The position numbers and the translations under genes were made by a program. Under the pieces are notes generated by a model, which was not told where the DNA came from, did no database searches, and was given only the letters and a program-made list of their open reading frames with translations. Of a DNA stretch of 39,361 nucleotides, positions 4,548-27,861 are shown one piece after another. This DNA comes from Candidatus Delongbacteria bacterium (GTDB taxonomy: Bacteria > CAIWAD01 > BS150m-G50): the NCBI GenBank assembly GCA_016784425.1, contig JADHUQ010000002.1, positions 1 to 39,361 of the forward strand. The letters are read 5' to 3'. Positions within the stretch are counted from its first letter, which is position 1, and each line of letters begins with the position of its first letter.

Positions 4548-4563
4548 AGGCACGCCCTTTGCT
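4548..4563 (+). promoter_or_regulatory. Sigma54 (-24/-12) promoter P1: AGGCAC-GCCCT-TTGCT
   Basis: GG at 4549-4550 and GC at 4561-4562 give exact GG-N10-GC spacing. It matches the TGGCAC-N5-TTGCW consensus at all but the first base. It lies about 80 nt upstream of the DUF2892 start and directly downstream of the bEBP gene. Confidence 0.7.
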
Positions 4564-6922: not shown

Positions 6923-6938
6923 TGGCACAGCTTTTGCG
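6923..6938 (+). promoter_or_regulatory. Sigma54 (-24/-12) promoter P2: TGGCAC-AGCTT-TTGCG
   Basis: GG at 6924-6925 and GC at 6936-6937 give exact N10 spacing, with a perfect TGGCAC and TTGC. It lies about 45 nt upstream of the outer-membrane factor gene. Confidence 0.75.
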
Positions 6939-8303: not shown

Positions 8304-8330
8304 CGCTTTCCTGAGGAGTACAAACCACTT

Positions 8331-8413
8331 ATAGTATTGCTTGCTTCGTTGCTGCAGGCAACGCTTTAGTAATTAATGACCGCTGAGGGGATTAGTTTGT
8401 GAAGCAATACTAT
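8331..8413 (+). repeat. Nested inverted repeats in the 181-bp cusC-cusB spacer (predicted RNA stem-loop structure)
   Basis: The outer arms ATAGTATTGCTT (8331-8342) and AAGCAATACTAT (8402-8413) are perfectly complementary over 12 nt. An inner hairpin is CGTTGC-TGCAG-GCAACG (8347-8363). There is no ORF in the spacer. Confidence 0.4.
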
Positions 8414-8484
8414 GGGCCCGATGCTTTGCTGACCGCGCTTTAAAGGCGATTAATTCTAAGCATCGGTATAACAGAGGTGATAGA

Positions 8485-10218: not shown

Positions 10219-10312
10219 AACGGAATACGGCTTGAAATACTTATACCCGGATCGCAGCAACGACTGTGTTTATCACAAAGCAGTATCACCGAGATTGCAT
10301 TAGAGGCCGAAC

Positions 10313-13300
10313 ATGAACCTGATCGAACGCATCATCGATGGAAGCATTAAGAATCGGCTTCTGATAATTCTCGTTACCCTGGCTCTCGTGGCGATGGGAA
10401 CCTATTCCCTCCTGACCATACCGGTTGACGCGATTCCCGACCTGTCCGATGTCCAGGTGATCGTAATCGCCGATTACCCCGGCCAGTCCCCCCAGGTTGT
10501 CGAGGACCAGATTATCTACCCCCTGACCACCGCACTGTTATCGGTCCCCTTCGTGAAAGATGTACGGGGCTACAGTTTCTTCAATTTTGGTATGGTGTAT
10601 CTGCTTTTTGAGGATGGCACCGATCTCTACTGGGCCAGGAGCCGGGTGCTGGAATATCTGAACCAGGCCGCCCAGAGAATGCCGGAAGGGGTTACCCCCC
10701 GGCTCGGTCCGGATGCCACCGGCCTGGGCTGGATCTACCAGTATACACTCGAATCGGATAACCACTCACTGCAGGAACTCCGCTCGCTGCAGGACTGGTA
10801 TATGCGGTATGAATTACAGACCGTTCCCGGTGTTGCCGAGGTGGCCAGTCTCGGTGGCTTCGTCAAACAATACCAGGTAGCCGTTGACCCGGATCGTCTG
10901 GCCGCACTGGGGATTCCCCTGCAGAAAGTGAAAATGGCGCTGGCTGCTTCGAATAATGATGTCGGGGGCAGGCTGATTGAGATGGCAGAGACCGAGTATT
11001 TCGTCAGGGGTCTGGGTTACCTGAGTGGAGATACCGACGCTGATATCATTGCCCAGATTGAGAGTATTGCGCTGGGTGTCAATGAGAACGGATTCCCGAT
11101 TCTGCTGAAACAGGTCGCAAATGTTGCAGTGGGTCCCGAGTTACGCCGTGGAATAGCAGAATGGAATGGGGAAGGGGAGACGGTGGGAGGAATTGTGGTC
11201 CTCCGGTTTGGTGAGAACGCCCTGGCGGTGATCAAGCGGGTTCAGGCCAAATTGCACGATCTGGAAACAGGTCTCCCGGAAGGGGTGAGAATTGTTACCG
11301 CTTATGACAGGTCAGATCTCATCTATCGGGCCATCGACACCCTGAAAGAAAAACTGACCGAGGAGATGATTGTCGTTGCTCTGATAATTCTCATCTTCCT
11401 GCTCCATTTCAGGAGTGCCCTGGTACCGATCCTGGCGCTGCCGGCAGGTGTACTGATTTCCTTCATGGTGATGAAGTGGATGGGGATTAACGCCAATATC
11501 ATGTCGTTGGGAGGTATTGCCATTGCGATTGGAGTGATGGTCGATGCCTCAGTAGTCATGGTGGAGAACGCCCACAAACATCTCGAAAGGGACAGTGGCG
11601 ACAAAACCCACGCGCAGATCATCTCTGAAGCCGCCCGGGAGGTTGGACCCGCGCTTTTCTTCAGCCTGTTGATAATAACTGTCAGTTTCTTCCCGGTTTT
11701 CAGTTTACAGGCCCAGGAAGGGAGGCTGTTCAGTCCGCTGGCATTTACCAAAACCTTTGCCATGGGGGCTTCAGCCATTCTGGCGATTACTATTGTACCG
11801 GTGCTCATGGTGATATTTGTGCGTGGCAAAATCATAAACGAGGCTAAAAATCCACTCTCGCGTTTCTTTATCTGGCTTTACCGACCCTTCATCAAAACAG
11901 TTCTTCGCCGACCGCTGCTGGTACTGCTCGGCAGCGTGATCGTTCTGGGGATTACCTACTTCCCTTACAGCAGGTTGGGGAGCGAGTTCATGCCACCGCT
12001 GAACGAAGGTGACCTGCTCTATATGCCGACCACACCACCTGGAATCTCCCCGGAGAAAGCGAGGGAGTTACTGCAACAGACTGATCGTATTATCGCCAGT
12101 TTCCCCGAAGTTGAACATGCCTTCGGCAAGATTGGTCGAGCTGAAACCGCCACCGATCCGGCACCGCTGTCGATGATTGAAACCACCATCATTCTGAAAA
12201 AGGACAGATCAGAATGGCGGGCAGGGGTAGACCTTGATTCCCTGGTAAAAGCGCTGGATGCGGCCATTCAATTTCCCGGTTTGACCAACGCCTGGACGAT
12301 GCCGATCAAGACCCGCATCGATATGCTCTCGACCGGGATCAAGACACCGGTCGGCATCAAGATTATGGGTGATGATCTGGAACAGCTGGCCCGGTTGGGG
12401 GAACAGATTGAAGCTGCGGTCAGTACAGTTGAGGGAGTTACTTCAGCCTATGCTGAACGGGCGATTGGCGGCAAGTATATAGACATCCGGATTAACCGTG
12501 AACAGATCGCCAGGCTGGGCTTGACCGTCGGCGATGTACAGGCTGTTATTATGACTGCTCTGGGAGGGATGAATGTCACCTGGACTGTGGAGGGTCAGGC
12601 GCGCTATCCGGTGAATGTCAGGTATCTGCGTGAACGGAGGGATGACATTTCCGATATATCCCGTATCAGAGTTCCGACCCCCGCCGGTGGGCAGGTCCCG
12701 CTCGGTCAACTGTCCGATATCAGGATTGTCGATGGCCCGCCGATGATAAAAACAGAGAACGCCCGCAAGACAGTCTGGGTCTATGTGGATACGAGGGACA
12801 GCGATATCGGTGGATTTGTGGAGCGGCTGCAGCAGGTTGTCAGGAGCGAGATCGATCTTCCGATCGGTTATTCGATAGTCTGGTCCGGTCAATTCGAATA
12901 CATGGAAAGGGCGAGCAAGCGGCTCAAACTGATCATACCGTTGACCCTGCTTATCATCTTCTTCCTGCTGTATGTCCACTTCGGCAATGTCACGGAGTCG
13001 CTGGTGGTCATGCTCACCCTCCCCTTTGCCATGGTGGGGGGAATCTGGCTGATGTATATCCTCGGTTTCAACTCTTCCGTTGCGGTTGCCGTCGGCTTTA
13101 TTGCCCTGCTCGGTCTGGCTGCGGAAACCGGTGTGGTGATGCTGGTGTATCTGGATGAATCCTTCCAGCGTTACACGGACGAAAATCGGATGCGTTACCG
13201 GTCAGATCTCAGAGGTGCCATCATGGAGGGGGCGGTGGATCGTGTGCGTCCCAAGCTGATGACGGTGGCGACCACCCTGATCGGTCTGTTACCGATCATG

Positions 13301-13483
13301 TTTGGCACATCCACCGGATCCGAGATTATGAAAAGGATTGCCGCGCCAATGGTCGGCGGACTGATCTCCTCCACCATTCTGACCCTCATCATCCTGCCTG
13401 CCGTGTACTATCTGATCAAGAGCAGGAGGGTCAGCCCGGATCCTGCGGTGGTAAAACCCACCAGTCCTGAAGGCGCCCGGTAG
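10313..13483 (+). CDS. cusA: CusA/CzcA-family heavy-metal efflux RND pump, CusA-like (Cu(I)/Ag(I))
   Basis: 1056 aa, with long collinear similarity to E. coli CusA as I remember it (PVDAIPDLSDVQVI, YWARSRVLEYLNQ, GPDATGLGWIYQY, LRSLQDW, RRGIAEWNGEGE, NANIMSLGGIAIA.G.MVDA). The three Met contexts of the CusA metal site are kept: LLYMPTT, PLSMIETT and RIDMLSTGIK. Confidence 0.96.
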   Translation: MNLIERIIDGSIKNRLLIILVTLALVAMGTYSLLTIPVDAIPDLSDVQVIVIADYPGQSPQVVEDQIIYPLTTALLSVPFVKDVRGYSFFNFGMVYLLFEDGTDLYWARSRVLEYLNQAAQRMPEGVTPRLGPDATGLGWIYQYTLESDNHSLQELRSLQDWYMRYELQTVPGVAEVASLGGFVKQYQVAVDPDRLAALGIPLQKVKMALAASNNDVGGRLIEMAETEYFVRGLGYLSGDTDADIIAQIESIALGVNENGFPILLKQVANVAVGPELRRGIAEWNGEGETVGGIVVLRFGENALAVIKRVQAKLHDLETGLPEGVRIVTAYDRSDLIYRAIDTLKEKLTEEMIVVALIILIFLLHFRSALVPILALPAGVLISFMVMKWMGINANIMSLGGIAIAIGVMVDASVVMVENAHKHLERDSGDKTHAQIISEAAREVGPALFFSLLIITVSFFPVFSLQAQEGRLFSPLAFTKTFAMGASAILAITIVPVLMVIFVRGKIINEAKNPLSRFFIWLYRPFIKTVLRRPLLVLLGSVIVLGITYFPYSRLGSEFMPPLNEGDLLYMPTTPPGISPEKARELLQQTDRIIASFPEVEHAFGKIGRAETATDPAPLSMIETTIILKKDRSEWRAGVDLDSLVKALDAAIQFPGLTNAWTMPIKTRIDMLSTGIKTPVGIKIMGDDLEQLARLGEQIEAAVSTVEGVTSAYAERAIGGKYIDIRINREQIARLGLTVGDVQAVIMTALGGMNVTWTVEGQARYPVNVRYLRERRDDISDISRIRVPTPAGGQVPLGQLSDIRIVDGPPMIKTENARKTVWVYVDTRDSDIGGFVERLQQVVRSEIDLPIGYSIVWSGQFEYMERASKRLKLIIPLTLLIIFFLLYVHFGNVTESLVVMLTLPFAMVGGIWLMYILGFNSSVAVAVGFIALLGLAAETGVVMLVYLDESFQRYTDENRMRYRSDLRGAIMEGAVDRVRPKLMTVATTLIGLLPIMFGTSTGSEIMKRIAAPMVGGLISSTILTLIILPAVYYLIKSRRVSPDPAVVKPTSPEGAR

Positions 13484-13506
13484 ATCCGCATCAAACAGCT
13501 CCTGAA

Positions 13507-13523
13507 ATTGAAAGATCCATTCA
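13507..13523 (+). promoter_or_regulatory. Candidate enhancer (UAS) site 3, ATTGAAAGATCCATTCA
   Basis: Centred about 83 bp upstream of the -24 GG at 13598. 15/17 identical to site 1. It overlaps the left arm of the cusA terminator hairpin. Confidence 0.4.
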
Positions 13524-13543
13524 GTACTGGATGGATCTTTTTT
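13511..13543 (+). terminator. Rho-independent terminator after cusA
   Basis: AAAGATCCATTCAGT / ACTGGATGGATCTTT is a near-perfect hairpin of about 10-11 bp, followed directly by TTTTTT (13538-13543). It starts 28 nt after the cusA stop. Confidence 0.65.
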
Positions 13544-13596
13544 ATTACCCAGCTGTCATCTAAATCTAAGATGTTATATATCAATATATTACATAT

Positions 13597-13612
13597 TGGC
13601 ACACTTGTTGCT
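13597..13612 (+). promoter_or_regulatory. Sigma54 (-24/-12) promoter P3: TGGCAC-ACTTG-TTGCT
   Basis: GG at 13598-13599 and GC at 13610-13611 give exact N10 spacing and a perfect consensus core. An IHF-like match, TATCAATATATTA (WATCAA-N4-TTR), lies at 13579-13591 just upstream. Confidence 0.75.
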
Positions 13613-13700
13613 GATAATCATTATCAAATAGAGATTTTCAGCGATGACTGAACTGAGAACAGTTTGAACTTAACACCAAATGAAGATAAGGGAGAAAAAA

Positions 13701-14222
13701 ATGTTTAGTAGAATCAGTAGAACATTGGGCTTTATGATGGTAGTAGCTTTAGCTGGTGCGCCACTGTTGGTGAATAGTGCAGTAGCCTGTGATGGTTGTA
13801 CGGGACACGCAAAAGTAGCAGTGCCCGACCAGGGTGAGCAGTACGGCACCATGAAGGCCAGCCAGGTTTCCTCAAGCCATGACGGCCATCAGGAAGCTCA
13901 TGGCATGATGGAGGCAATGGAACACGCCAAAGGAACCAGCCTGGGAATGATCATGACGGCTGAGCATCTGTACAGCTGTCCGATGCACCCGGAAGTCGTT
14001 GCCGTCGACGCAGAAACCACCTGTCCCCTCTGTAACATGAACCTAACCCCGATGAGTCAGGATGATGTTGTCAAATTGCGCAGCTCCCATCCTGAGGCTT
14101 GCCCGATGGATCCAATCGTGGTCGCAGGAAACAGCGACGTAGAAACCTGTCCGATCTGCAAGATGGATCTTACAGAGATTCAGCTGCCAGATATGGAAAG
14201 TGGACATGTGCATCGCCAGTAG
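13701..14222 (+). CDS. Secreted Cys/His/Met-rich metal-binding protein with two HMBD-type modules (paralog 2)
   Basis: AGGGAG lies 7-8 nt before the ATG at 13701. The track ORF begins at 13680 in the same frame. Signal peptide MFSRISRTLGFMMVVALAGAPLLVNSAVA. ACDGCTGHA and an HDGHQEAHGMMEAMEH stretch. Modules LYSCPMHPEVV...CPLCNMNL and ACPMDP...CPICKMDL. Same architecture as 5108-5689. Confidence 0.8.
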   Translation: MFSRISRTLGFMMVVALAGAPLLVNSAVACDGCTGHAKVAVPDQGEQYGTMKASQVSSSHDGHQEAHGMMEAMEHAKGTSLGMIMTAEHLYSCPMHPEVVAVDAETTCPLCNMNLTPMSQDDVVKLRSSHPEACPMDPIVVAGNSDVETCPICKMDLTEIQLPDMESGHVHRQ

Positions 14223-14723
14223 GCTGCTGTCGGTTGACAATAGCGATATTGTTGATAACAGGCTATAAAGGCTTTCAAAAAGGACAGATTGCTCTTTGCT
14301 TGAAGGAGAGGATAGTGAGGGCAGACGATCGGCCAGTGTCACCTGATACTGGCTGATCTCTTTTAGGTCAGCTTCGATTACCTCCGGACTGTTCAAGCAG
14401 GAGCTGCCAGCTTCGGGGAGAAAGGGGGCTGTTCGGTTAAGATAATTGTGTCATACCATATTGAATCAGCGTTTCACAGAAGTGTGCCCGGCAATAATCG
14501 GGGAAAACCGGGTTCGGAAAAACAGTGCTGCTTGCACAACGCCTGCCTGTAAGCTACTTTGCACCTGAGCTCTCTTCGTTGTTGTTTCCGGGTCACAAAG
14601 GAATTCTGCTCCGAAGGGCCAGGCTCAATAGTTTTACCTGAAAGCATTCCGGGATTCCTCGGAAAGATCAGCTGCCACGATGCTGCGCAAACTCTGCACA
14701 GACTAACAGGAAAGCCGGATGAT

Positions 14724-16202
14724 ATGAATCTGATGTTGATCATTCATATAATCGAGAGTCTGCTGATCATCTATTTCTCACTGTATCTGCTGATAGAGCT
14801 GGCGATGATCGTGATATTCTTCTTTGTCTGGCGTTCATCATCAGATACTACTGTGCAGTTGGATAAATCTGCCGTAAGCGGGCAGGGGATAACTATCATC
14901 GTCCCGGCTTACAATGAGGAAATGACCATTGTCGATGTGGTAGAGATGCTGGGGGAGTCGGATTATCCTGAATATGAAATCATTGTTGTAACTGACGGTT
15001 GTACCGATGCTACCCTGCAAAAACTGCAGGACCGTTATGCGTTGCAGGATGTTGCCCGGGAATTTGTTGATGATATTGGCACCTCAGGTGTAAACCAGCT
15101 CTACACCAGCCCGGTGAATTCACGTCTGACGGTAATTGACAAACCCAATGGGGGTAAAGCCGACGCACTCAATGTCGGCTTGAGTTTTGCCAGTCATCCC
15201 TACGCCTGTACAATTGATGCCGATTCTATTCTCGATCCCCAGGCGTTGCGGCAGGTAGCTGCACCGTTTCTGGCAGCTGACGGCGAAAGTGTGGTGATGG
15301 TCGGCGGGGCGCTGGCCGTTGCCAACCGGACCAGGCTGGTAGGGAATCGCCTGACAGGAGGTGAGTTTCCCCGTAATCCCTGGGTCGTCTTTCAGGTCAT
15401 CGAGTACCTGCGCTCGTTCCTGGTCAGTCGAACCGGTCTCGCCAGGATACGCGCACTGCTTATTCTATCGGGCGCTTTTACGCTGTTCCGACGCGAAAGC
15501 CTGCTGGCAGCAGGTGGTTTTCTCTCACTGCACAACCATCACCCCTACATCAAAGAGCTGGGACTTGACGGACGGCACACTGTCTGTGAGGATATGGAGG
15601 TTGTGGTCAGGTTGCGCAGATATCTGAAAGAACAGGGAAAGCCCTCCCGGACCGTATTTCTGCCCCGTCCGATCTGCTGGACAGAAGTTCCGGACAATGC
15701 CGCAAATCTTTCGCTGCAACGCAATCGCTGGCATCGGGGACTGCTGGAGACAATTTACTTTCACCGGAAACTGATTCTGGAGCCATTCTATGGTTCTCTC
15801 GGACTCATCGCCCTGCCATATTACCTGATCTTTGAGGCTATATCACCGATCATAAAATTGCTGGCGCTCCTTTTCGTCGGCGGATTGCTGGCCTGGGGAT
15901 TGGTAAACCGGATGGCGATGATTCTGCTGCTGCTGTCGGTCAACATCACCACAGTAATCTTCATCGGGATTATTACAGTTGTGGTTGAGAGCTGGGGGAG
16001 CAAACACTCACCGGTGAATGTTGCCGCACTCAGGTACCGCAATCATCCGGACTGGCTGGCGCTCCTGGGGATGTCAATACTGGGTGATTTCACCTTTGCC
16101 CATATCCGTATGTTCTGGCAACTAGGGGGAATCAGTGGTTTTCTGAAGGGTAGAAAATCGTGGGATAAATTTGAAAGGAAAGGATTTCATGAAGCTGCGT
16201 AG
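14724..16202 (+). CDS. Processive family-2 glycosyltransferase, PgaC/IcaA-like exopolysaccharide synthase
   Basis: N-terminal TM helix. IIVPAYNEE, VVTDGCTDAT, NGGKADALN, TIDADS (DxD), LSGAFTLFRR, CEDMEVVVRL and QRNRWHRG (QxxRW) are present. Several C-terminal TM helices follow. The track ORF start at 14559 adds 55 non-hydrophobic residues with no support, so I prefer the ATG at 14724. Confidence 0.9.
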   Translation: MNLMLIIHIIESLLIIYFSLYLLIELAMIVIFFFVWRSSSDTTVQLDKSAVSGQGITIIVPAYNEEMTIVDVVEMLGESDYPEYEIIVVTDGCTDATLQKLQDRYALQDVAREFVDDIGTSGVNQLYTSPVNSRLTVIDKPNGGKADALNVGLSFASHPYACTIDADSILDPQALRQVAAPFLAADGESVVMVGGALAVANRTRLVGNRLTGGEFPRNPWVVFQVIEYLRSFLVSRTGLARIRALLILSGAFTLFRRESLLAAGGFLSLHNHHPYIKELGLDGRHTVCEDMEVVVRLRRYLKEQGKPSRTVFLPRPICWTEVPDNAANLSLQRNRWHRGLLETIYFHRKLILEPFYGSLGLIALPYYLIFEAISPIIKLLALLFVGGLLAWGLVNRMAMILLLLSVNITTVIFIGIITVVVESWGSKHSPVNVAALRYRNHPDWLALLGMSILGDFTFAHIRMFWQLGGISGFLKGRKSWDKFERKGFHEAA

Positions 16203-17127
16203 AACATTCTTCTTCATCTGTCTGCTGGCCTCCGTCCCACTTACAGGTTGCTTCAACAGCAACGCGGATGTCGACAGCAATCCACTCGGGAGTGACAATG
16301 CTGGTGAAATCTGGATCAGAATCACTTACCCCGCCCAGTGGGGTACCGTAGCCGGAATTGAGGAGATCAGTGTAGAAGCCGGACCGGTTGGTGAAATTGA
16401 CTCGGTCGGCTTTTTTGTCGACGGGCAGGAGCTGGGTAACGACTCTGTTTCACCCTTCACATTTACCTGGGATGTTAACGGTCTGACCGGCTCTCACTCG
16501 ATTTTCACAAGAGCATATACCGCTGCAGGAACGACAGATTCCGATCTGTTGACTGTAAGTGTTTTTGAGCCCTCTCCTCTGGAACCGGTTATTACCTCAC
16601 CGGCCAATTTGAGCGTCGTGGAAAACACAATCACAGTATTTGCTGAGGAGACCACTCCTGTAGAGGTAGACAGTGTTGTACTTTACACTGACGGTCAGCG
16701 TTTTGAGGCGGATGATACTGAACCGTTCCAGTTTCTATGGACCGTTCCCGACTCAGTCAATTCACATACATTATTTGTAAAATCCTGGCTGGAGAACCGT
16801 TCCGGAACATCCCCACTGGTGACCCTGTTTGTAGAATCCGATTATGACACCCGACTGCCCTATGTCCAGATCCTCTCGCCGGCTGACTGGTCTGTGGTAC
16901 AGGGGGAGATTGAGGTTATTGCCGCAGCACTGGATAACTACGGTATTGATCGGGTTGTTCTGGTTCTTGACGGTCTGGACCATGACACACTTTATACAGC
17001 ACCTTACCTGTTTCCTCTGAATACTGATCTTCTGACAGAGGAGAACCACACCTTGATCTGCAGAGCCTATGATACAGCCGACAATTATAATCTGTCAAAT
17101 ATGGTCACTATCGTGGTGGACCGATGA
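16189..17127 (+). CDS. Lipoprotein with three tandem Ig-like (Big_7 / chitinase-N-like) domains
   Basis: GAAAGGAAAGGA RBS. MKLRRTFFFICLLASVPLTGC has a lipobox (LTGC). Three repeats of about 95 aa share I.SP....V.G.I.V.A...D.V.(F/L).VDG......PF.F.W.V......H.L...A.D. The start overlaps the GT2 stop by 14 nt. Confidence 0.75.
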   Translation: MKLRRTFFFICLLASVPLTGCFNSNADVDSNPLGSDNAGEIWIRITYPAQWGTVAGIEEISVEAGPVGEIDSVGFFVDGQELGNDSVSPFTFTWDVNGLTGSHSIFTRAYTAAGTTDSDLLTVSVFEPSPLEPVITSPANLSVVENTITVFAEETTPVEVDSVVLYTDGQRFEADDTEPFQFLWTVPDSVNSHTLFVKSWLENRSGTSPLVTLFVESDYDTRLPYVQILSPADWSVVQGEIEVIAAALDNYGIDRVVLVLDGLDHDTLYTAPYLFPLNTDLLTEENHTLICRAYDTADNYNLSNMVTIVVDR

Positions 17128-18689
17128 GGGGCTGGAAAACCGGTCTCCTCCACCGCACAATCCCTCTGTTTACAACGATGTTGCTGCTGGCCCTGGTGGC
17201 TGAAGGTGGGCAGAGGTTTCTGGAAGGACGGGCAGCGGTTTCTGTCTCCGACTATCCAGGCGCCGTAGATCTGCTGAAAACAGCCGTCGTTGAGGATAAG
17301 ACAAATCCTGAAGCCTGGCGCCTGCTCGGGTTTTCCTACTGGAGGCTGGATTCCCTGCAGGAGGCGGTGGCAGCATATCAGCAGGTCCTGATCCTGCGTC
17401 CCGCTGATTACGATGCCAGACTGGGACTGGGGGCGATTTTCGCATTGCTGGGATCAACCGGCCCCTCCATCGCTATCTTCTCAGAGATCCTCGCTACTGA
17501 CTCAACCGATGTTGAGGCCTGGCTGGGGGTGGGGAGAAGCTACTCCTGGCAGAATGATCTGAGGGAGGCGGAGTCCGCCTACCGCCAGGCCCTCTTCTAC
17601 AAGCCCGGCTATCCCAGGTCTCTACTTGGCCTGGCCGAAGTTCTCGCCTGGCAGAATAGATCCACTGAAGCGCGAGCAGTCTACTGCCAGCTCCTGGAGG
17701 TTGACTCCACCTATGCCGAGGCCTGGACCGGACTGGGAAACAGCTGGTACTGGGTAGATCACCCTTACCAGGCGCTCCTCTATTACCGCAAAGCCCGGCA
17801 GCTGGATGAGCATGATCAACAGTTAAACCGGCTGATAACCAGGGTTGAAAACGAGGTGGAATGGAGCCACCAGCCGACCTACACCTACTGGGCGGAGGAT
17901 GACGACGGTTTGATCACAGAACATGAAAAGCTCTCCTTTTCCACCGGGAAGCGTATAAACGACCTGTTTGAGATCACCGGAAGGTTTTCAGCCTACAGCT
18001 CTTTCAGGGATAACGGCTGGAGTTACCGCCGTAACCTGGGTGTGAGCGGTGTGATACACACCTTTCGCGGTTTCAATATTCAGCCTGAGGCCGACATTGA
18101 TCTCTTGTCCGGAAATCTGGACCTGCTGCAACTCCTGGGTAGTTATCAGGGAAACAGAAGCTGGAGCTGGTTCAGGAGTAAGCTCATTTACGCAAACAGT
18201 CTCTATGAGTTGTGGTCCGACACCCGGGCCGACGGTGTCTGGGGAGAGGTCACATTTGAAAAGAAAGCTCTGTTCGCAGTCACCGCCGGTGCCGGAAGAT
18301 GGTATCTGTCGGATGAGAACAGAAAAAGCCAGGTGTCGATCCAGCTCCGGATCACCTCTCTCCAGGCAGCAGGGCTCACCTTCCTGCTAAACTCCAGATA
18401 TCTGGATTTCCGGGAAAATGTCGTCGGCTACTGGACACCACAGGAGTTGCGTTATGACGGTGTTGGCATGCAGTATACGGGCAACCTGAACCGCTTTATT
18501 CAGCTTGAAGGTACCGGGGAATACGCCATCAATACCGACAGTAATCGCTTCATCAGTCTGACCGGGTCAATTCAAACCGTTCTCCTGGAGGACTATCGGA
18601 TCAGTACCGGTGTGTCGTATTTCGAAACGGATACAGATTACCGTATGCTGCTCTGGCGTGTATCACTCCAGGCTGGAGGACTGTTTTGA
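17124..18689 (+). CDS. TPR-repeat protein with a C-terminal predicted outer-membrane beta-barrel (short PgaA/PelB/BcsC-type export porin)
   Basis: Signal/TM segment. About 200 aa of TPR-like repeats (AWRLLGFSYWRL...A..AYQQVL...P.DYDARLGLG, AWLGVGRSY, AWTGLGNSWYW). Then about 280 aa of alternating-polarity strands rich in Y/W/G, ending ...SLQAGGLF with a terminal aromatic residue. ATGA overlap with the upstream gene. Confidence 0.7.
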   Translation: MRGWKTGLLHRTIPLFTTMLLLALVAEGGQRFLEGRAAVSVSDYPGAVDLLKTAVVEDKTNPEAWRLLGFSYWRLDSLQEAVAAYQQVLILRPADYDARLGLGAIFALLGSTGPSIAIFSEILATDSTDVEAWLGVGRSYSWQNDLREAESAYRQALFYKPGYPRSLLGLAEVLAWQNRSTEARAVYCQLLEVDSTYAEAWTGLGNSWYWVDHPYQALLYYRKARQLDEHDQQLNRLITRVENEVEWSHQPTYTYWAEDDDGLITEHEKLSFSTGKRINDLFEITGRFSAYSSFRDNGWSYRRNLGVSGVIHTFRGFNIQPEADIDLLSGNLDLLQLLGSYQGNRSWSWFRSKLIYANSLYELWSDTRADGVWGEVTFEKKALFAVTAGAGRWYLSDENRKSQVSIQLRITSLQAAGLTFLLNSRYLDFRENVVGYWTPQELRYDGVGMQYTGNLNRFIQLEGTGEYAINTDSNRFISLTGSIQTVLLEDYRISTGVSYFETDTDYRMLLWRVSLQAGGLF

Positions 18690-21600
18690 AGGGTAAGTAT
18701 GCAGTTATTGCCCTCCTTGCAGCAATCCTGGTCTGGACTGTGTCTGTCATGCTGAACTACATGGACAGACCACTTACCGGCACGATGAAGAATCTGGTCG
18801 GAGAAATCACCGGTTCAAGCAGTGTATCCTCCAGACAGATCATTCCAGTTCATACCATGCAGGAGTGGAAGTCACTGGCCGCGAAGAGTGAGTACTTCAC
18901 CCGGGTTGTCCGGGATCAGATTCAGCTGCAAACCACGCGTAGAAATCAGGATCTGAGTCCGGCCGAAGTATCCTGGCAGTCATTTTTCATGAAGGGTTTC
19001 AATCTGGGTGCGGCGCTCCCGGGATGCTTTCCGTCTGAATTCAAAGCCACCAGAGACCAGTATTATCACTGGCTGGAACAGATGGGCGATCTGGAGGTCA
19101 ATGTGGTCAGAACCTATACCATTCTCCCACCTGAATTCTATGAAGTGCTCAAACGGTACAATTTCAACAATCACAACAATCCCATCTATTTAGTCCAGGG
19201 TGTGTGGGCGTATGTGATCAGTGAAGGCAGCTATGGTGATCCCCGGTACATTGAAAACTTTCAGGCCGAGATCAGGGATGTGATCGATGTGATTCATGGT
19301 AACGCGGTCATTGAGGCCAGGCCTGGTCACGCACACGGTGTTTATACTGCGAACGTCAGTAGATATACTGCGGCCATCATTCTGGGTCGGGAATGGGAAC
19401 CGAATACTGTCAGCGATATGAGACGGCAGTTTCCGGAGAGAACATCATATGAAGGGGTGTTTTTCTCAGTGCCTGACGGACACCCCATGGAGTGCTGGAT
19501 TTCGGAAGCACTCGATTACACTGCCAGATATGAAACTTCCTCATATCAATTCCAGCACGCGCTCTCTTTTGTGAACTGGTTGCCACTGGATCCGATGTAT
19601 CACGACAGCGAGTGGATTGAATGGGACGCTGTACGGGAATTCGATAATGATCTTGAAACGATCGATCCTGGAAATATTCACGACTCGCCGCTGTTCAAGC
19701 CGGGTTATTTCGCAAGTTACCATGCTTATCCCTATTACCCAGATTTTGTCTTCAACGATCCCGGCTATCGCCAGGCGCAATGCGCTCAGGGGCCATGCAC
19801 CTACTTTGGTTATCTGCAGGACCTGGTAGCAGCACATGCCAATTTACCGGTAGTCATTGCGGAGTTTGGCGTGCCCTCCAGCCGCAGCGCCTCCCATTTT
19901 GAACCGGCGGGGATGAACCAGGGTGGACACTCGGAGGTGGAGCAGTGCAGAATCAACGCCCACCTGATCGGTGATATTCATCAATCAGGTGCGGCAGGCG
20001 CCATCCAGTTTTCCTGGATTGACGAGTGGTTCAAACATAACTGGCTGGTAATGGAATTTGAGCTTCCCCGCGAACGCAACAAGTTGTGGCATAATCTGGA
20101 AGATCCGGAGCAGAACTTCGGTATTCTGGCGCTGGAATCAAAAACCATAGTCATCGATGGTAAGCTGGCTGACTGGAAGGATTCCCAGATGCTGGCAACC
20201 GATCCGGCAGGTGATGCTGCGGTCAGCGGAGTGGATATCAGCTCTTTCTGGGCGACCTCTGATGCCAGCTGTCTCTATCTGAGAATGGACTTCAATGAAG
20301 AACTCACGGATGCAACCTGGCAGGATCAGACGATCTGGATTGGAATTGACACCTACGACAGGGATAGAGGCGACTTCTGCTTTCCCGACCGGTCCTTTAC
20401 GGCGCCAGCCGGGCTTGAATTTCTGCTCGAGATTGCCGGACCTGGCCAATCGCGTCTGCTGGTTGATGATCCCTACGATGTTTATACCGATTACTTCAAA
20501 CAGGAAACACCCGGCTACAGCTCCCTGCCCAATCGTGACGGCGTCTTCCACGATCAACGACTTCTGACCAACAGAATGCGTGAAACTCTGTTTGGCGAGC
20601 TGTTTCCCGCAGTATATCTGACCCGCAGTAATCTGCTGTGGGGTACTGCTGATCCGGAAGTCCCGCAACACAGCTCACTGGTCGACATCTCTCTCAGCAG
20701 CGATCGCAGGCAGATCGAACTGCGCCTTCCCTGGGCACTGCTCAATGTAACCGATCCCTCCACGAGGTCTTTGCTCGACAATCGCCCGGAGACTGATGAG
20801 TTGGACATTACCACGACAGCCGGTTTCACCTTTTATCCTCTGGTTGTGCAGAACCAGGGTAGCAGCCGGAAGCTGGTTGACGCCATACCGGATGATCGTG
20901 AACAGGGGATCAGCTTCAGCTGGGACAGGTGGGAGGTTCCGGCCTACACATCCCGTTTGAAAGAGGGTGCCGAACTGGTTGCGACAGCTTTTCGATCTGC
21001 AGTCGGATCGGTAAATTCTACGGAGCAGTTTCCGAAGGGGCCACTTGCCGAACTTGCACAGTGGCCGGGAGGAAAAGGGGGAGGTGTATCCCTCACCTTT
21101 GATGACGGCAGCTCAAATCAGTTTCGTTACGGCAAGAAACTGCTGGAAAAGTATGGCATGCGCGGCACTTTTTTTGTCGTTACCAGCTGGACCGGTCACA
21201 GTCCTCTCGTCACCGGTGAAGCAGGGGGTTTAATCACCCGCCGGCTTTCGATACCGGAAATCCGCGAACTGCACCGGGCGGGGCACGAAATTGGCAGTCA
21301 TGGCCATGAACATCGCCCGCTGAATAACAGTGTAACCGAACGGTGGATGATCTCCACCTTTTCAGAAAGTCAGATGCTGATTTCCGAATGGACAGGTGAA
21401 TCACCGATTTCAATCGCTTATCCCTATTCCGCCCTGACGGCTGATGGGATGGAAACACTGGTGAATCTGGGTTTTCAATACGGCCGTTTCAGTGGTAACC
21501 ACTCAAATGATCCGGCTGCTGTATCGAATCTGGGATTATACAGCCATATCATGATTGACGACCAGAACCCGGACCCATATTCCCTGGTTGGACTGTTGGA

Positions 21601-22045
21601 TGAGAACCGGGACCGGTGGACTATTTTGCAGTATCATCATCTCTTTCCTACAGATGCCCGCGAATACAGTCAGCTGGTGGATCATGATGTTGAGGAAAAG
21701 TATAATGTAACCCCCCGGAGTTTTGAGCGTCAGCTACGGTTGCTCCGCAATCGCAACCTGTCAGTTCTCCCCCTGCGGGAAATGGGTGAATATCTGGAGG
21801 CGTACGCAGCCACAACACTGGAGTTCAGTGAACACCAGGACAGCTATGTATTGACCCTGAAAACAAAGACCAACCTGAGGGGAGATTACCCACCGCTGAC
21901 CGTGAAGCTGTGGACTCCCTGGGAATGGATATCTATTGATGGTTCTGAAAACGATGGTGTCTATCATAACCGTACCGGGTATCTCACGTTTGAGATGATT
22001 CCAGGCAGTGAGGCTGTTGTTCAGAGAGGCTACAGTGAGAGATAA
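18686..22045 (+). CDS. Membrane-anchored multidomain polysaccharide-modifying enzyme: clan GH-A-like TIM-barrel glycoside hydrolase, beta-sandwich domain, and CE4 (NodB) de-N-acetylase
   Basis: TTG start 5 nt after GGAGGA. N-terminal TM helix. Hydrolase-like region with ILGREWE (candidate acid/base) and VVIAEFGVPSS (candidate nucleophile Glu, codon 19862-19864). Middle region DGKLADW...D.AGD...DISSFWATSD..CLYLRMDF. C-terminal CE4 motifs LTFDDG (about 21092-21109), GSHGHEH and IAYPYS. Confidence 0.85.
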   Translation: MKGKYAVIALLAAILVWTVSVMLNYMDRPLTGTMKNLVGEITGSSSVSSRQIIPVHTMQEWKSLAAKSEYFTRVVRDQIQLQTTRRNQDLSPAEVSWQSFFMKGFNLGAALPGCFPSEFKATRDQYYHWLEQMGDLEVNVVRTYTILPPEFYEVLKRYNFNNHNNPIYLVQGVWAYVISEGSYGDPRYIENFQAEIRDVIDVIHGNAVIEARPGHAHGVYTANVSRYTAAIILGREWEPNTVSDMRRQFPERTSYEGVFFSVPDGHPMECWISEALDYTARYETSSYQFQHALSFVNWLPLDPMYHDSEWIEWDAVREFDNDLETIDPGNIHDSPLFKPGYFASYHAYPYYPDFVFNDPGYRQAQCAQGPCTYFGYLQDLVAAHANLPVVIAEFGVPSSRSASHFEPAGMNQGGHSEVEQCRINAHLIGDIHQSGAAGAIQFSWIDEWFKHNWLVMEFELPRERNKLWHNLEDPEQNFGILALESKTIVIDGKLADWKDSQMLATDPAGDAAVSGVDISSFWATSDASCLYLRMDFNEELTDATWQDQTIWIGIDTYDRDRGDFCFPDRSFTAPAGLEFLLEIAGPGQSRLLVDDPYDVYTDYFKQETPGYSSLPNRDGVFHDQRLLTNRMRETLFGELFPAVYLTRSNLLWGTADPEVPQHSSLVDISLSSDRRQIELRLPWALLNVTDPSTRSLLDNRPETDELDITTTAGFTFYPLVVQNQGSSRKLVDAIPDDREQGISFSWDRWEVPAYTSRLKEGAELVATAFRSAVGSVNSTEQFPKGPLAELAQWPGGKGGGVSLTFDDGSSNQFRYGKKLLEKYGMRGTFFVVTSWTGHSPLVTGEAGGLITRRLSIPEIRELHRAGHEIGSHGHEHRPLNNSVTERWMISTFSESQMLISEWTGESPISIAYPYSALTADGMETLVNLGFQYGRFSGNHSNDPAAVSNLGLYSHIMIDDQNPDPYSLVGLLDENRDRWTILQYHHLFPTDAREYSQLVDHDVEEKYNVTPRSFERQLRLLRNRNLSVLPLREMGEYLEAYAATTLEFSEHQDSYVLTLKTKTNLRGDYPPLTVKLWTPWEWISIDGSENDGVYHNRTGYLTFEMIPGSEAVVQRGYSER

Positions 22046-22052
22046 GTTTATC

Positions 22053-23924
22053 ATGACCGGTTTTAAGAATCAGCTTCGTCATTGCGTAATTTACTGTCTG
22101 GTATTGTGGGGCATGTTGCTGATCACCGGATGCTCGCCACCCTCGGTCGACGAGCGCATCCAGTCGGAACTGCCCGGCCGCGCTCCCGATTTCGTGGTGC
22201 CGCGGGCGGCAATTCTCGCTACGAGCGATGGTGAAGGGCTGGGGACCTTTTCCGACGGTGTCCTGCTTGCCTACGAAGCGCTGAATCGGGCGGGAATTCC
22301 CACCCGGATCTGTGACCGGACCATTCTTGCCGACAGCTCAAGACTCGGTGATTACAGCATTATCATCGCTTCCACCCTCTTCGGCTATCATGATGCTGAT
22401 CAGCGCTTCTCGCTGACATTCATGGATGATGATCAATTGAAACTCCTCAACGACTGGATATTTGACGGCGGTGTGCTCGTTGCCGGGGAGAATTTTGGCA
22501 GAAACAGCCGTGAAGGACATGACCGGCTGGTAGATTCAGCTGAGCTGAATTCTGAAACATGGTTGCTCGGCGATGCGATCGGGGTAACCCTGACCGAGCA
22601 GAATCTTGAAGGGTTCGAACTGTCCCTGCAGGCGGATTCAACTGAAACCAAAATCTGGCGGACTAAAGCCAAATACCTGCTTACAAAGCCGGAGTGGCTT
22701 CTTGCTCCCTCTGCCAGGGTGGATACAACCCGGGTGAGGGTTCTGGGCAGCTGGAAAAACCTGGACCGGAAAATTCCTGCAGTCTGGGAAAGCTCCTGGG
22801 GCTCAGGGCGGATGTTCTATTTTTCAGACTTCAGACTCCTGCACCCAAACCTGGATGGTGGACTCTCTTCACCTGATGAAATTGAAAACTTCTACCGGTA
22901 TCTGGCCGCTCGCGTTTTCCCGCTGGACGAGCGTTCAACAATTGAGCAGATTTCTGTTTCCCCCTGGTACCGAGGTCACACGGCCGTACTGGCTGTTACC
23001 TTGAATGCTACCGGGGAGGAGGAGAGTTTCGAGCGAACCATCAGCTCGCTGCTTGAGGATGCACCCGCGTTGACCCTGTTCACCAGTCATCCTGAAACCG
23101 TTGCCCGCCGGCTCCCGGCTGACCTGCTGCAGCGGGTGGAGATAGCCTCACTCAGTAAATCAGACCAGCAACTGAGCCATCTTGAGCCGCAGCGTGCCAG
23201 AGAATTGATTCACTGGCCCCCGTCCACTGCTGTTTCGATCAGGGGTTTTCGGTTTCCCAGATTAGCCAGAGCCCGGTCGATATTCGAGTATCTCGATCTG
23301 GCCGGTTACGCTTATGATAGCAGCCTGCCGGTGAACCATCAGGATTATTACGCTGGCAGTCTTTATCCTGTCAATCTCATGCTTACCGATCAGGGTGGCA
23401 GCACTGAGCTGAAACTACTGGAAATGGGGCCGATATTCCGTGATGACTGGTCGTTTTACGAAAAGGCTCCCAGTGATAGAATTCAGGCTGCCGCCATGTA
23501 CCGCGATTTCCTGCTGGAAGCCTGGAGCGGTGTCTTCCTTCCCCGGAACGGGCTGATGGTCCAGATTGGAGATCCGCAGTTTGAGGGTGAGTCGGAGGCT
23601 ACACTGGAGCCGGTGAAAGTCCTGATCAACACGGCACTGGCTGATAACGGCTGGGTTACAAACCTGGCAACTGTGGCAGATTTCTGGAAGATGAGAGAAA
23701 CTGTAACGGTTTCGCTCTGGCGCACAGACAACAAAGTGCAGATACTGGTTTCGGGCGGTGAACAGGATATCGCCGGCCTGACTCTAAAGGTGGCGGTCTC
23801 GGCAGACTGGTCAATGGAAAGGCTTGAAGCCGCCCTGAATGGGACAGTTCAGATGGAGAGTGACCGGTTGCTCAATCTCATCAGCAATTCAGGTAATCGG
23901 TCTTTCTATTCGTTACATGATTGA
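22053..23924 (+). CDS. Lipoprotein of unknown function; N-terminal GATase1/ThuA-like fold suspected, C-terminal degenerate polysaccharide-deacetylase-like domain suspected
   Basis: MTGFKNQLRHCVIYCLVLWGMLLITGC has a lipobox (ITGC). The track start (GTG 22008) lies inside the upstream gene. LAVTLNATGE occupies the place of the CE4 TFDDG motif, and RGFRFPRL resembles the RxPY block. The domain calls are weak. Confidence 0.65.
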   Translation: MTGFKNQLRHCVIYCLVLWGMLLITGCSPPSVDERIQSELPGRAPDFVVPRAAILATSDGEGLGTFSDGVLLAYEALNRAGIPTRICDRTILADSSRLGDYSIIIASTLFGYHDADQRFSLTFMDDDQLKLLNDWIFDGGVLVAGENFGRNSREGHDRLVDSAELNSETWLLGDAIGVTLTEQNLEGFELSLQADSTETKIWRTKAKYLLTKPEWLLAPSARVDTTRVRVLGSWKNLDRKIPAVWESSWGSGRMFYFSDFRLLHPNLDGGLSSPDEIENFYRYLAARVFPLDERSTIEQISVSPWYRGHTAVLAVTLNATGEEESFERTISSLLEDAPALTLFTSHPETVARRLPADLLQRVEIASLSKSDQQLSHLEPQRARELIHWPPSTAVSIRGFRFPRLARARSIFEYLDLAGYAYDSSLPVNHQDYYAGSLYPVNLMLTDQGGSTELKLLEMGPIFRDDWSFYEKAPSDRIQAAAMYRDFLLEAWSGVFLPRNGLMVQIGDPQFEGESEATLEPVKVLINTALADNGWVTNLATVADFWKMRETVTVSLWRTDNKVQILVSGGEQDIAGLTLKVAVSADWSMERLEAALNGTVQMESDRLLNLISNSGNRSFYSLHD

Positions 23925-25869: not shown

Positions 25870-27861
25870 TCACCCCAGAAACAGACTGCCCACCTGATAA
25901 ACCAGTACCGCCATCAACCAGCCTAACAGCAGCGGATAAACGGTGGCCAGCACCGCCCAGCGCAGACCGGCCTCTTTGCGGATCACCGCCATCGTCGCCA
26001 GACAGGGAATATAGATCAGCGCCATCACCATGAATGCATAGGTTGATAAGGGGGTAAAGAGGAGGCGCAAAACTTCCTCGCTGACCCGTAAAGTCTCCAG
26101 GGTACCGATCATAACCTCCTTGGCAACGATACCAAAGATGAGTGTAACTGCCGCCTGCCAGGAGCCAAACCCGGCCGGCTCCAGAACCGGAGCAATGAAA
26201 GCACCGAGCCGCCCGATCCAACTGGCTGCGGAGGCGTATTCCACCCCGACCGGCAGCGAAGCCAGTAACCAGATGAGCATCACACCAAAGACGATAACCG
26301 TCCCCGCCCTGCGTAAAAACATCAGGGTGCGGGTCCATGCCTGACGGAAGACATGCCCCCATACCGGCAGTTGATACGGGGGTAATTCCATGATCAGCGG
26401 AGCGGTATCCTGCCGGAAGAAGATCGATTTGAAGAGACGAGCCATGGCAACAGCCAGCACGATTCCCAACAGATACAATGAGAGCACTACTACCCCCTGA
26501 TGCTCCCGAAAGAAGATTCCGGTAAAGAGAATGTAGATCGGCAGCCGGGCCGAGCAGGACATCAAGGGGTTGACCAGAATGGTAAGCAGACGGTCCTTGC
26601 GTGATTCCAGAGTGCGGGTGGCCATTATGGCCGGGACATTGCAGCCGAACCCGAGCAGCATCGGGATGAAACTCTTGCCGTGCAGACCGAGCAGATGCAT
26701 TAAACGGTCCATGACGAAAGCGGCGCGGGACATATAGCCGGTTTCGCCCAGCAGCGCAAAGACGGTGAAAAGGATGAAGATATTCGGCACAAAGACCAGG
26801 ATAGCACCGACCCCGGCGATAATACCGTCGGTCAGCAGCGAAATCAGCCAGGGGTGGACGCCAACCAGCGGCAATATACCCTGCAGTCCTTCGCTCAACA
26901 GGCCCACGGATTTGTCGATGAGGTCGGCCAGCGGATTGCCAAGACTGAATATCAGCTGGAAAGACAACCACATGAAAAACAGAAACAGCGGTATCCCGAG
27001 CCAGCGGTTGGTTGCAACGCTGTCCACCTTGTCGGAGAAGCTAACCCTGGTGGAAAAACCGCCCCGCCGTTGCACACACTCCCGGCAGAGTCCATGGATA
27101 TAGCCATAGCGTTTCTCAGCCAGCATGACCGCAATGTCGCTCTCTGCGGAGGTAAACCGGTTGAGAATTTCCATGATCTCTTCCTGACGGGTCATTTTCT
27201 GCAACCGGGCCAGAAATTCCGGATCCTCCTCCGCCAGTTTGACTGCCATGAAGCGAGTAGGGCAGGTACACTTTTCTTCCTGCTCCAGTAACTGCTGAAC
27301 TTCGCTCAACGCCTCATCAATCTCTTCGCCGTAGTAAGAGGGTGGGGTTGGGATGGGTAATTCCAACCGCTGGGCGATAGCTTCCCGCAACTGGTCGATT
27401 CCCTCCCCTTTAACACCGATTGTCGGGACAACCCGGATCTGCAGCTGTTGCGCCATCGCGAGATGATTGATCTGCAGACCACTCTTCTCCGCCATGTCCA
27501 TCATGTTGAGGGCGATCACTACCTTTTCACCTAATTCCAGGAGCTGCAGAACCAGGTAGAGATTACGTTCCAGGTTGTCAGCATCGACCACAACGACCAC
27601 CAGGTCCGGTTCCCTTTCAACCAGGAAGTCCCGGGCAACTTTTTCATCAAGGCTGTAAGAGGTAAGTGAGTAAATACCGGGCAGGTCGATAATACGGATG
27701 GTTTTATCAGCGAACCGGAAGTGCCCCTCTTTCCGTTCAACCGTAACCCCGGGCCAGTTACCGGTACTCTGGTTGCTGCCGGTCAGGCGGTTGAAGATAG
27801 TGGTTTTGCCGCTGTTGGGATTACCGGCGAGTGCAATTGTATATTCTGGTTGATTTGCCAT
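25870..27861 (-). CDS. feoB: Ferrous iron transporter FeoB
   Basis: N-terminal G domain IALAGNPNSGKTTIFNRLTG...GNWPGVTVE...DLPGIYSL. A large polytopic membrane domain carries the conserved gate motifs. 663 aa. Confidence 0.96.
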   Translation of the reverse strand: MANQPEYTIALAGNPNSGKTTIFNRLTGSNQSTGNWPGVTVERKEGHFRFADKTIRIIDLPGIYSLTSYSLDEKVARDFLVEREPDLVVVVVDADNLERNLYLVLQLLELGEKVVIALNMMDMAEKSGLQINHLAMAQQLQIRVVPTIGVKGEGIDQLREAIAQRLELPIPTPPSYYGEEIDEALSEVQQLLEQEEKCTCPTRFMAVKLAEEDPEFLARLQKMTRQEEIMEILNRFTSAESDIAVMLAEKRYGYIHGLCRECVQRRGGFSTRVSFSDKVDSVATNRWLGIPLFLFFMWLSFQLIFSLGNPLADLIDKSVGLLSEGLQGILPLVGVHPWLISLLTDGIIAGVGAILVFVPNIFILFTVFALLGETGYMSRAAFVMDRLMHLLGLHGKSFIPMLLGFGCNVPAIMATRTLESRKDRLLTILVNPLMSCSARLPIYILFTGIFFREHQGVVVLSLYLLGIVLAVAMARLFKSIFFRQDTAPLIMELPPYQLPVWGHVFRQAWTRTLMFLRRAGTVIVFGVMLIWLLASLPVGVEYASAASWIGRLGAFIAPVLEPAGFGSWQAAVTLIFGIVAKEVMIGTLETLRVSEEVLRLLFTPLSTYAFMVMALIYIPCLATMAVIRKEAGLRWAVLATVYPLLLGWLMAVLVYQVGSLFLG

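Follow-up and report, generated by a model that had tools for sequence, protein, structure and literature searches.

What do five closely packed genes of a Candidatus Delongbacteria bacterium (contig JADHUQ010000002.1 of assembly GCA_016784425.1) do together, and does the locus belong to any exopolysaccharide (EPS) system already described? The genes, G1–G5, occupy positions 14724–23924 of the + strand of a 39,361-nt stretch of DNA, which is the window analyzed here and to which all coordinates refer unless another locus is named. Synthase-dependent EPS systems are understood for cellulose, alginate, poly-beta-1,6-N-acetylglucosamine (PNAG; GlcNAc for the monomer), Pel, and a small number of further cases, Nfr and mixed-linkage glucan among them, nearly all of which come from Proteobacteria and Bacillota. 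We consider, with a probability of about 65%, that G1–G5 make, trim, deacetylate, and export a sugar polymer, constituting a synthase-dependent EPS system of a type for which no published description was found in the full-text literature searched. Specifically, G1, a processive family-2 glycosyltransferase (GT2) in the inner membrane, would polymerize a nucleotide-sugar, most likely UDP-GlcNAc or another UDP-N-acetylhexosamine (HexNAc), and thread the chain into the periplasm. G4, anchored in the inner membrane through a single helix, would remove some acetyl groups with its CE4 domain and cut or trim the chain with its clan GH-A glycoside hydrolase (GH) barrel by a retaining mechanism via E238 and E393. 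The periplasmic TPR domain of G3 would then take the chain and deliver it to the C-terminal outer-membrane barrel for export, assisted by two lipoproteins: G5, with a deacetylase fold that has lost its metal ligands, as probably a partner of G4 that binds the polymer or serves as a scaffold without being catalytic, and G2, with Ig-like repeats, as a lineage-specific accessory.

Gene structure and domain composition

The five co-directional open reading frames (ORFs) follow one another with almost no space between them (Table 1). As read from the sequence, the ATG of G2 (16189) precedes the stop codon of G1 (16200–16202), giving a 14-nt overlap (16189–16202); G2 and G3 overlap in ATGA (17124–17127); G3 and G4 overlap in TTGA (18686–18689), in which TTG is the start of G4 and TGA the stop of G3; and the TAA of G4 (22043–22045) is separated by 7 nt (22046–22052) from the ATG of G5 (22053). 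Every junction was exactly as claimed in a preliminary description of this DNA, made from the letters and an ORF list without database searches. Mechanically, upstream starts are possible for G1 (TTG 14559), G2 (TTG 16171), and G5 (GTG 22008); the lengths of annotated G1 homologues (488–492 aa) and of close G5 homologues (623 aa) agree with the starts at ATG 14724 and ATG 22053. Judging from these overlapping or near-abutting junctions, the five genes form one tightly packed operon and are predicted to be translationally coupled, which argues against the possibility, raised in the preliminary description, that they are not co-transcribed.

G1 matched the Pfam GT2 families, and its DAD (TIDADS), ED (VCEDME), and QRNRW motifs align to those of E. 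coli PgaC, with which it shares 27% identity at aa 55–339 (E = 7e-19), that is, in the catalytic GT domain only. Its best curated NCBIfam model was PgaC_IcaA (TIGR03937; E = 4e-29), with 101.7 bits versus a cutoff of 422.3. Hydropathy analysis revealed one N-terminal hydrophobic segment and a cluster of segments at aa 359–417. Moreover, a profile of 25 family members aligned to the Chlorella-virus hyaluronan synthase at positions 15–398 (E = 3e-11), to chitin synthase at positions 160–390, and to BcsA in the N-terminal part only; the alignment runs through the catalytic domain into the membrane region of the processive hyaluronan and chitin synthases. G1 therewith matches, at the sequence level, the GT with a QxxRW-type active site and membrane helices that characterizes the general synthase-dependent class. 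The motifs and the segment cluster agree with its earlier reading as a processive GT2 with DxD, QRNRW, and additional C-terminal transmembrane helices, and the profile alignment speaks against a non-processive enzyme lacking a membrane channel.

These likenesses also raise the possibility of a chitin- or chitosan-like polymer (beta-1,4-HexNAc), or of another HexNAc polymer such as poly-N-acetylmannosamine, for which G4 would serve as a chitin-deacetylase and chitosanase-like pair. Besides the profile alignment to chitin synthase and hyaluronan synthase, G1 and its relatives match Pfam Chitin_synth_2, the CE4 family includes chitin deacetylases, and clan GH-A includes beta-1,4-specific enzymes. 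However, chitin synthase and NodC gave scores much below that of PgaC, the locus contains no epimerase or other sugar-nucleotide gene, and nothing in these data separates the possible linkages, so that we regard such a product as quite unlikely.

The AlphaFold2 (AF2) model of G4 (pLDDT 89.2; pTM 0.89) consists of a transmembrane (TM) helix (aa 2–26), a (beta/alpha)8 barrel, beta-sandwiches, a CE4 domain, and a final beta-sandwich, in this order. In Foldseek searches, the barrel matched best a GH157 endo-beta-1,3-glucanase (E = 1.5e-13; 10% identity), followed by GH17, GH2, GH164, and GH5, and on these matches the modeled barrel is assigned to clan GH-A, with GH157 as its nearest family. Indeed, the acid/base Glu after strand 4 and the nucleophile Glu at strand 7, which define placement in this clan, have counterparts in the model: strands 228–233 and 389–394 lead to E238 (in REWEP, after strand 4) and E393 (in AEFG, strand 7), the predicted acid/base and nucleophile, respectively. 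Both are among the residues invariant in 118 G4 homologues (E236, E238, E393, H346, Y348, D446, E447, and W448). Because of the modeled GH-A fold and the invariant catalytic Glu residues, the hydrolase looks active. LaGH157 (PDB 9g4n), the best structural match to the barrel plus beta-sandwich, has the two catalytic Glu in the same placement as the model, but the identity is only the 10% given above, and G4 differs in being membrane-anchored, CE4-fused, and genetically tied to a synthase. Neither a Pfam family nor, even with the 118-sequence profile, a PDB sequence matched the barrel; this lack of a PDB match and the low identity argue against membership in GH157, and the barrel is a probable new glycoside hydrolase family. 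The tblastn matches of G4 in other phyla span aa ~70–770, indicating that the beta-sandwiches travel with the barrel in all phyla.

The CE4 domain of G4, detected with Pfam PF01522 (E = 1.8e-21), has the metal triad and the catalytic Asp/His motifs of the family (TFDD, HxxxH, RxPY-like, and LxH), represented by the mostly conserved D806, D807, H872, H876, YPY 912–914, and H984/H985. Its best PDB profile matches were the GlcNAc de-N-acetylases PplD and PgaB, and its Foldseek matches include PgaB, BpsB, and IcaB. With the modeled GH-A barrel, an intact CE4 domain, and a TM anchor, G4 would correspond to the periplasmic modifying enzyme or glycosidase of the general synthase-dependent class; the TM-anchored glycoside hydrolase/beta-sandwich/CE4 fusion proposed before is borne out by the AF2 model and Pfam.

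The nature of the barrel bears on another candidate product, a neutral beta-glucan (beta-1,3 or mixed linkage), with the CE4 domains acting as O-deacetylases or as non-catalytic binding modules. The closest structural relatives of the barrel are GH157 and GH17 beta-1,3-glucanases, CE4 copies of this locus type are often degenerate, and the module occurs without CE4 outside the FCB phyla, all of which would fit such a product. Against it, other GH-A families score like GH157, to which identity is so low; G1 is poor versus cellulose synthase models (CelA, 29.7 bits, N-terminus only); G4 of the window retains every CE4 catalytic residue; and the locus has no acetyltransferase that could supply O-acetyl groups. 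We therefore consider a neutral glucan improbable.

G3 carries a signal peptide and Pfam TPR matches within aa 30–235, and, as noted in the preliminary description, it is a 521-aa TPR protein that ends in Phe, a residue terminating 11 of 15 G3 homologues. The TPR half has helical periodicity and the C-terminal half (~280 aa) a two-residue amphipathic beta periodicity (z = 4.5 versus shuffles). On account of this beta periodicity and the terminal Phe, the C-terminal half is predicted to be an outer-membrane barrel serving as an export porin, a prediction that is the weakest point of the model. The match of G3 to the PgaA model TIGR03939 was weak (31.4 bits; cutoff, 366.65), matches of the full-length G3 profile in the PDB were dominated by TPR proteins, and no Pfam match was obtained with 11 C-terminal halves of the G3 family. 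Since the porin fold is a prediction and a GH with a CE4 domain is typical of degradation loci too, one might suppose that the locus remodels or degrades an envelope or environmental glycan, or that its product stays in the periplasm. Such roles seem extremely improbable, for the GH-like module has, across phyla, no neighbor more constant than a membrane GT2 with QxxRW, the block has no SusC/SusD, transporter, or sugar catabolism genes, and G4 is membrane-anchored rather than secreted.

The two remaining proteins are lipoproteins, as described earlier. G2 has a lipobox (LTGC, read from the sequence) and three stretches matching Pfam Big_7 (E = 5e-34), in accord with three Ig-like repeats, and G5 (623 aa; lipobox ITGC; AF2 pLDDT 77) contains the deacetylase-like region that had been called degenerate. 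G5 is composed of a GH42/GH164 "trimerisation"-type (glutamine-amidotransferase-like) domain (aa ~47–290), for which Foldseek found the GH42/GH164 middle domain and ThuA-like proteins, a degenerate CE4-like domain (aa ~297–550), and a beta-sandwich (aa 552–622). In the second domain, TLNATG and ASLSKS stand in place of TFDDG and HSxxH; both DD and HxxxH (motifs 1 and 2) are lost, so that G5 lacks the CE4 catalytic feature, whereas the distant homologues P0128 and P0129 retain TFDDG and HSxxH. At E < 1e-30, the G5 family comprises only 47 representatives, and its CE4 part reaches broader GH42M-plus-CE4 proteins. An identification of the G4 N-terminal module with YdaN, which we take to be BcsB/PssD-like, and of G5 with YdaL (B. 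subtilis ydaJKLMN/Listeria pss) was dropped as unsupported; the ~567-aa proteins matching the CE4 part of G5 bear no Yda names. In PMC13274460, too, no account of the present operon type was found. The closest named relative of G5 (65% identity) comes from Candidatus Electryonea clarkiae, a member of the FCB superphylum according to PMC9324843, which makes no mention of the G1–G5 locus.

Table 1 Features of the operon and stand-alone CE4 genes of related loci (the latter in the coordinates of the locus named)
Feature	Position	Strand	Description
Intergenic region 5' of G1	14223..14723	+	~500 nt; presumed operon promoter region
G1	14724..16202	+	inner-membrane family-2 glycosyltransferase, 492 aa, predicted processive synthase
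G2	16189..17127	+	lipoprotein, 312 aa, three Big_7 Ig-like repeats
G3	17124..18689	+	secreted TPR protein, 521 aa; C-terminal ~280 aa predicted outer-membrane beta-barrel
G4	18686..22045	+	TM-anchored periplasmic enzyme, 1119 aa, predicted bifunctional
G4 glycosidase barrel, aa ~100-480	18983..20125	+	(beta/alpha)8, clan GH-A type in the AF2 model
G4 beta-sandwich domains, aa ~481-760	20126..20965	+	AF2 secondary structure
G4 CE4 (NodB-type) domain, aa ~787-1040	21044..21805	+	Pfam PF01522
G4 C-terminal beta-sandwich, aa 1043-1119	21812..22042	+	AF2 model
G5	22053..23924	+	lipoprotein, 623 aa, three domains
Stand-alone intact CE4 gene	L008 3-1034
Stand-alone intact CE4 gene	L012 3892-4986
Stand-alone intact CE4 gene	L013 4042-5121
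Stand-alone intact CE4 gene	L082 2396-3511

Recurrence of the block across phyla

More than 3441 homologues of G4 were found, which are named, if at all, only "polysaccharide deacetylase family protein", and, with each GTDB species represented by a single genome, the G4 N-terminal module was detected in at least 597 species of ten or more phyla. When the five proteins were compared with 86 loci by tblastn, the layout of GT2, TPR-barrel protein, G4 (N-terminal module plus CE4), and G5 was recognized in Cloacimonadota, Bacteroidales, Flavobacteriales, Saprospiraceae, Ignavibacteria, and WOR-3, and the block is also kept as a unit in Electryoneota-like genomes. The complete five-gene order is repeated amid different neighbors in loci L089, L090, and L001 (G4 identities of 73%, 43%, and 39%, respectively), and L002 (36%) has the same order without the Big_7 gene and, again, different flanks; a synteny survey, suggested in the preliminary description, thus revealed a recurring block, which speaks against a chance arrangement. 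A full-length G1-like GT2 (31–45% identity) is encoded no more than 8 kb away from the G4 N-terminal module in 23 of 38 loci with complete flanks, and this is so in 5 of 5 loci of the CE4-fused type. As an observation apart, the GH-like module of Cyanosarcina radialis (L027, 7485–10124) is fused behind N-terminal TPR repeats in a protein of 879 aa, with no G1-like GT2 within 8 kb.

The two lipoproteins differ in their distribution. G5 is present in most CE4-fused loci examined, and the designation of both as accessory does not hold for it. It holds for G2, which among the related loci examined occurs only in L001, L011, L089, L090, and the window; no tblastn match to G2 (E <= 1e-5, the limit for counting hits in this screen) was obtained in the other screened loci.

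Within the CE4-containing loci, the state of the deacetylase domains varies. The CE4 domain of G5 is degenerate in 18 of 20 related loci, and that of G4 is intact in about half of the same 20. Four of the nine loci with a degenerate G4 CE4 have a stand-alone intact CE4 gene, with SFDDA/HGYRH-type motifs, just 5' of the GT2 gene (Table 1). As far as sequence motifs tell, a deacetylase tends to be kept in most of the loci examined, though not in every one, and the active and degenerate CE4 copies within one locus offer a natural example for studying how pseudoenzymes evolve in polysaccharide processing.

In Gemmatimonadota, Acidobacteriota, Eisenbacteria, Deinococcus, and Bacillota, the G4 module occurs without CE4 and G5. 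The modules of Gemmatimonadota, Eisenbacteria, Deinococcus, and Bacillota share with the window an orthologous GT2 (29–41% identity) and the GH-like plus beta-sandwich module (22–41%), and differ from it in a HEAT-repeat protein (~357–390 aa), which lies directly 5' of the GT2 in all five such loci examined (L023, L065, L075, L085, and L086), and, frequently, in REC or GGDEF regulators; in L023 the regulator is of a double-REC type and in L075 of a GGDEF-REC type. The window lacks the HEAT protein, a candidate for a regulatory subunit. Separately, genes with a CotH domain adjoin the module in two unrelated genomes: in L086 (6384–7802), a Planococcus plasmid, the CotH kinase gene stands beside polyphosphate polymerase and DUF4956 genes, and in L089 (2009–4939), an Electryonea-like contig, one gene joins CotH, a beta-helix, and a type IX secretion system (T9SS) tail.

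Relation to known systems and the probable polymer

Among characterized systems, pgaABCD/hmsHFRS/bpsABCD of Proteobacteria are like the present locus in having a GT2 synthase of the PgaC branch, a TPR outer-membrane protein, and a protein combining CE4 with a (beta/alpha)8 glycosidase. PgaB, however, is a lipoprotein with an N-terminal CE4 domain followed by GH153, whereas TM-anchored G4 has its glycosidase first and CE4 second; PgaA has 807 aa as compared with 521 aa for G3, with no detectable barrel homology; and the pga system has no equivalents of the two extra lipoproteins. The operon might nevertheless be a highly diverged and reshuffled pga equivalent producing PNAG. This would be in keeping with the PgaC_IcaA model and E. 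coli PgaC as matches of G1, the weak match of G3 to the PgaA model, the CE4 matches to PgaB, BpsB, and IcaB, and the common logic of synthase, TPR porin, and deacetylase plus hydrolase. Yet all four NCBIfam pga equivalog models scored far below their cutoffs, the PgaB model TIGR03938 giving 15.8 bits with G4 (cutoff, 321.9), and BLASTP aligned only the TFDDG stretch of G4 with PgaB, the two sharing no more than the generic CE4 motif. In addition, the hydrolase is of clan GH-A and not GH153, the barrel half of G3 shows no hhalign likeness to PgaA (probability 0.4), and PgaD is missing: the overlapping or abutting genes leave no space for a small ORF, just as the preliminary description had noted the lack of a separate PgaD-like gene. 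A PNAG system is thus unlikely.

The synthase of the Pel system is a GT4 enzyme (PelF) working with PelD, PelE, and PelG, in contrast to the single GT2 of the present locus. No Pel protein families were found in the Pfam and NCBIfam scans, in which the only glycosyltransferase was the GT2. The domain order of PelA, a hydrolase followed by a deacetylase and a beta-jelly-roll, is like that of G4 (PMC12022489); PelB is a TPR protein plus porin, with the lipoprotein PelC assisting export (in part after the abstracts of PMC12022489 and PMC12141448). As for bcs, there was neither PilZ nor a BcsB match in the locus, and the CelA score mentioned above compares with a cutoff of 699. Membership in nfrBA-ybcH was likewise not borne out, since BLASTP of G1 with NfrB gave E = 0.002 over 36 aa and hhalign of the C-terminal half of G3 with NfrA a probability of 0.1. 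The comparisons with pga, pel, bcs, and nfr agree with the earlier statement that the layout is unlike pga, pel, bcs, alg, or ica, and no characterized operon type was found that matches the locus, speaking against a routinely characterized one. The system had also been described as a hybrid synthase-dependent one. A synthase-dependent-type EPS locus it appears to be, but "hybrid" is misleading because the G4 hydrolase, unrelated to the hydrolase domains of PelA and PgaB, is a barrel of clan GH-A that belongs to a large, separate family and the porin half of G3 lacks detectable homology to the PgaA barrel; the locus seems to be an independent lineage within the synthase-dependent class and not a pga/pel mixture. 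Bacteroidetes, Ignavibacteria, and Chlorobi go unmentioned in the operon survey of Bundalovic-Torma et al. (PMC7112194).

The product of the proposed EPS operon is probably a partly deacetylated, beta-linked polymer based on HexNAc, because the GT2 falls on the PgaC/IcaA branch and matches best the HexNAc-using synthases and because the CE4 domain is closest to GlcNAc de-N-acetylases. As a third point in its favor, enzymes of clan GH-A act on beta-glycosides with retention. The partially de-N-acetylated hexosamine polymer proposed in the preliminary description is accordingly plausible. The evidence from GT2, CE4, and GH-A does not fix the sugar and the linkage. More specifically, the locus may be the FCB form of a large unstudied EPS system with a core of PgaC-branch GT2 and a tethered enzyme of a new GH family, making a polymer distinct from PNAG, Pel, cellulose, and alginate. 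The G5 pseudo-deacetylase with its GH42-type oligomerization domain would then join G4 in a periplasmic processing complex. We put this version forward tentatively, as a possibility with somewhat less than even chances.

Several points weigh against the proposed EPS operon. The functions of all members of this locus type, including the one in the window, are deduced from sequences and models. The C-terminal half of G3 gave no Pfam, PDB profile, or hhalign match to known porins. Neither the five operon proteins nor the 20 scanned ORFs of the flanks (longer than ~150 aa) contained a recognizable c-di-GMP receptor domain (PilZ, GGDEF, EAL, or MshEN), though a cryptic site may exist, and the operon encodes no other regulator. 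The substrates of the enzymes structurally nearest to the G4 barrel are beta-1,3-glucan, glucuronides, and mannosides rather than HexNAc polymers, so that the polymer assignment depends solely on the likenesses of the GT2 and CE4. Finally, in five loci (L010 and L014–L017) no intact CE4 was found in the DNA examined, and deacetylation is therefore not universal.

Loci of this type are frequent among Bacteroidota, Cloacimonadota, Ignavibacteria, and related uncultured phyla, which are the dominant ones in anaerobic digesters, sediments, and stratified lakes. In such habitats, aggregation and carbon flow are influenced by matrix polymers. The G4 barrel family, being large and having conserved catalytic residues without a Pfam model or solved sequence relative, is a candidate new GH family and a possible biofilm-dispersing enzyme.

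Flanking genes and regulatory signals

The genes on both sides of the operon are of unrelated function, with a Cus-type RND metal efflux set on the 5' side and a CBS protein, a ferredoxin-like protein, and feoAB on the 3' side. The gap before G1 presumably holds the operon promoter, and a terminator-like hairpin (14327–14358) lies in it, 3' of the preceding HMBD gene. No match to a sigma-70-type, Bacteroidetes-type, or sigma-54-type promoter was found at 14223–14723, and the Bacteroidetes-type -33/-7 promoter had no match in the whole window; sigma-70-like and terminator-like sites occur at chance level.

In E. coli K-12 (L088, 586000–595000), nfrBA-ybcH adjoins cusRS, and in the window the EPS operon adjoins the Cus-like efflux set (6984–16202). 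The nfrBA-ybcH proteins are not homologous to those of the window operon, and the adjacency is therefore probably a coincidence.

On the 5' side of the operon, a perfect sigma-54 consensus, TGGCAC-N5-TTGCT, is located at 13597–13612, just 5' of the HMBD gene starting at 13680, and sites with one mismatch are at 6923–6938 (5' of the outer-membrane efflux gene at 6984) and 4548–4563. Genes for a sigma-54 activator and a histidine kinase are located at 1284–4432, and sigma-54 may therefore control the Cus-like metal efflux locus, the window-wide count of such sites being at chance level. HMBD domains are present in two small proteins (5108–5689 and 13680–14222) and, in three copies, in the CusB-like membrane fusion protein (8485–10218). 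On the other side of the operon, the AT skew reaches 0.317 at 26001–27000, inside the minus-strand feoB, far above the values in the remaining window.

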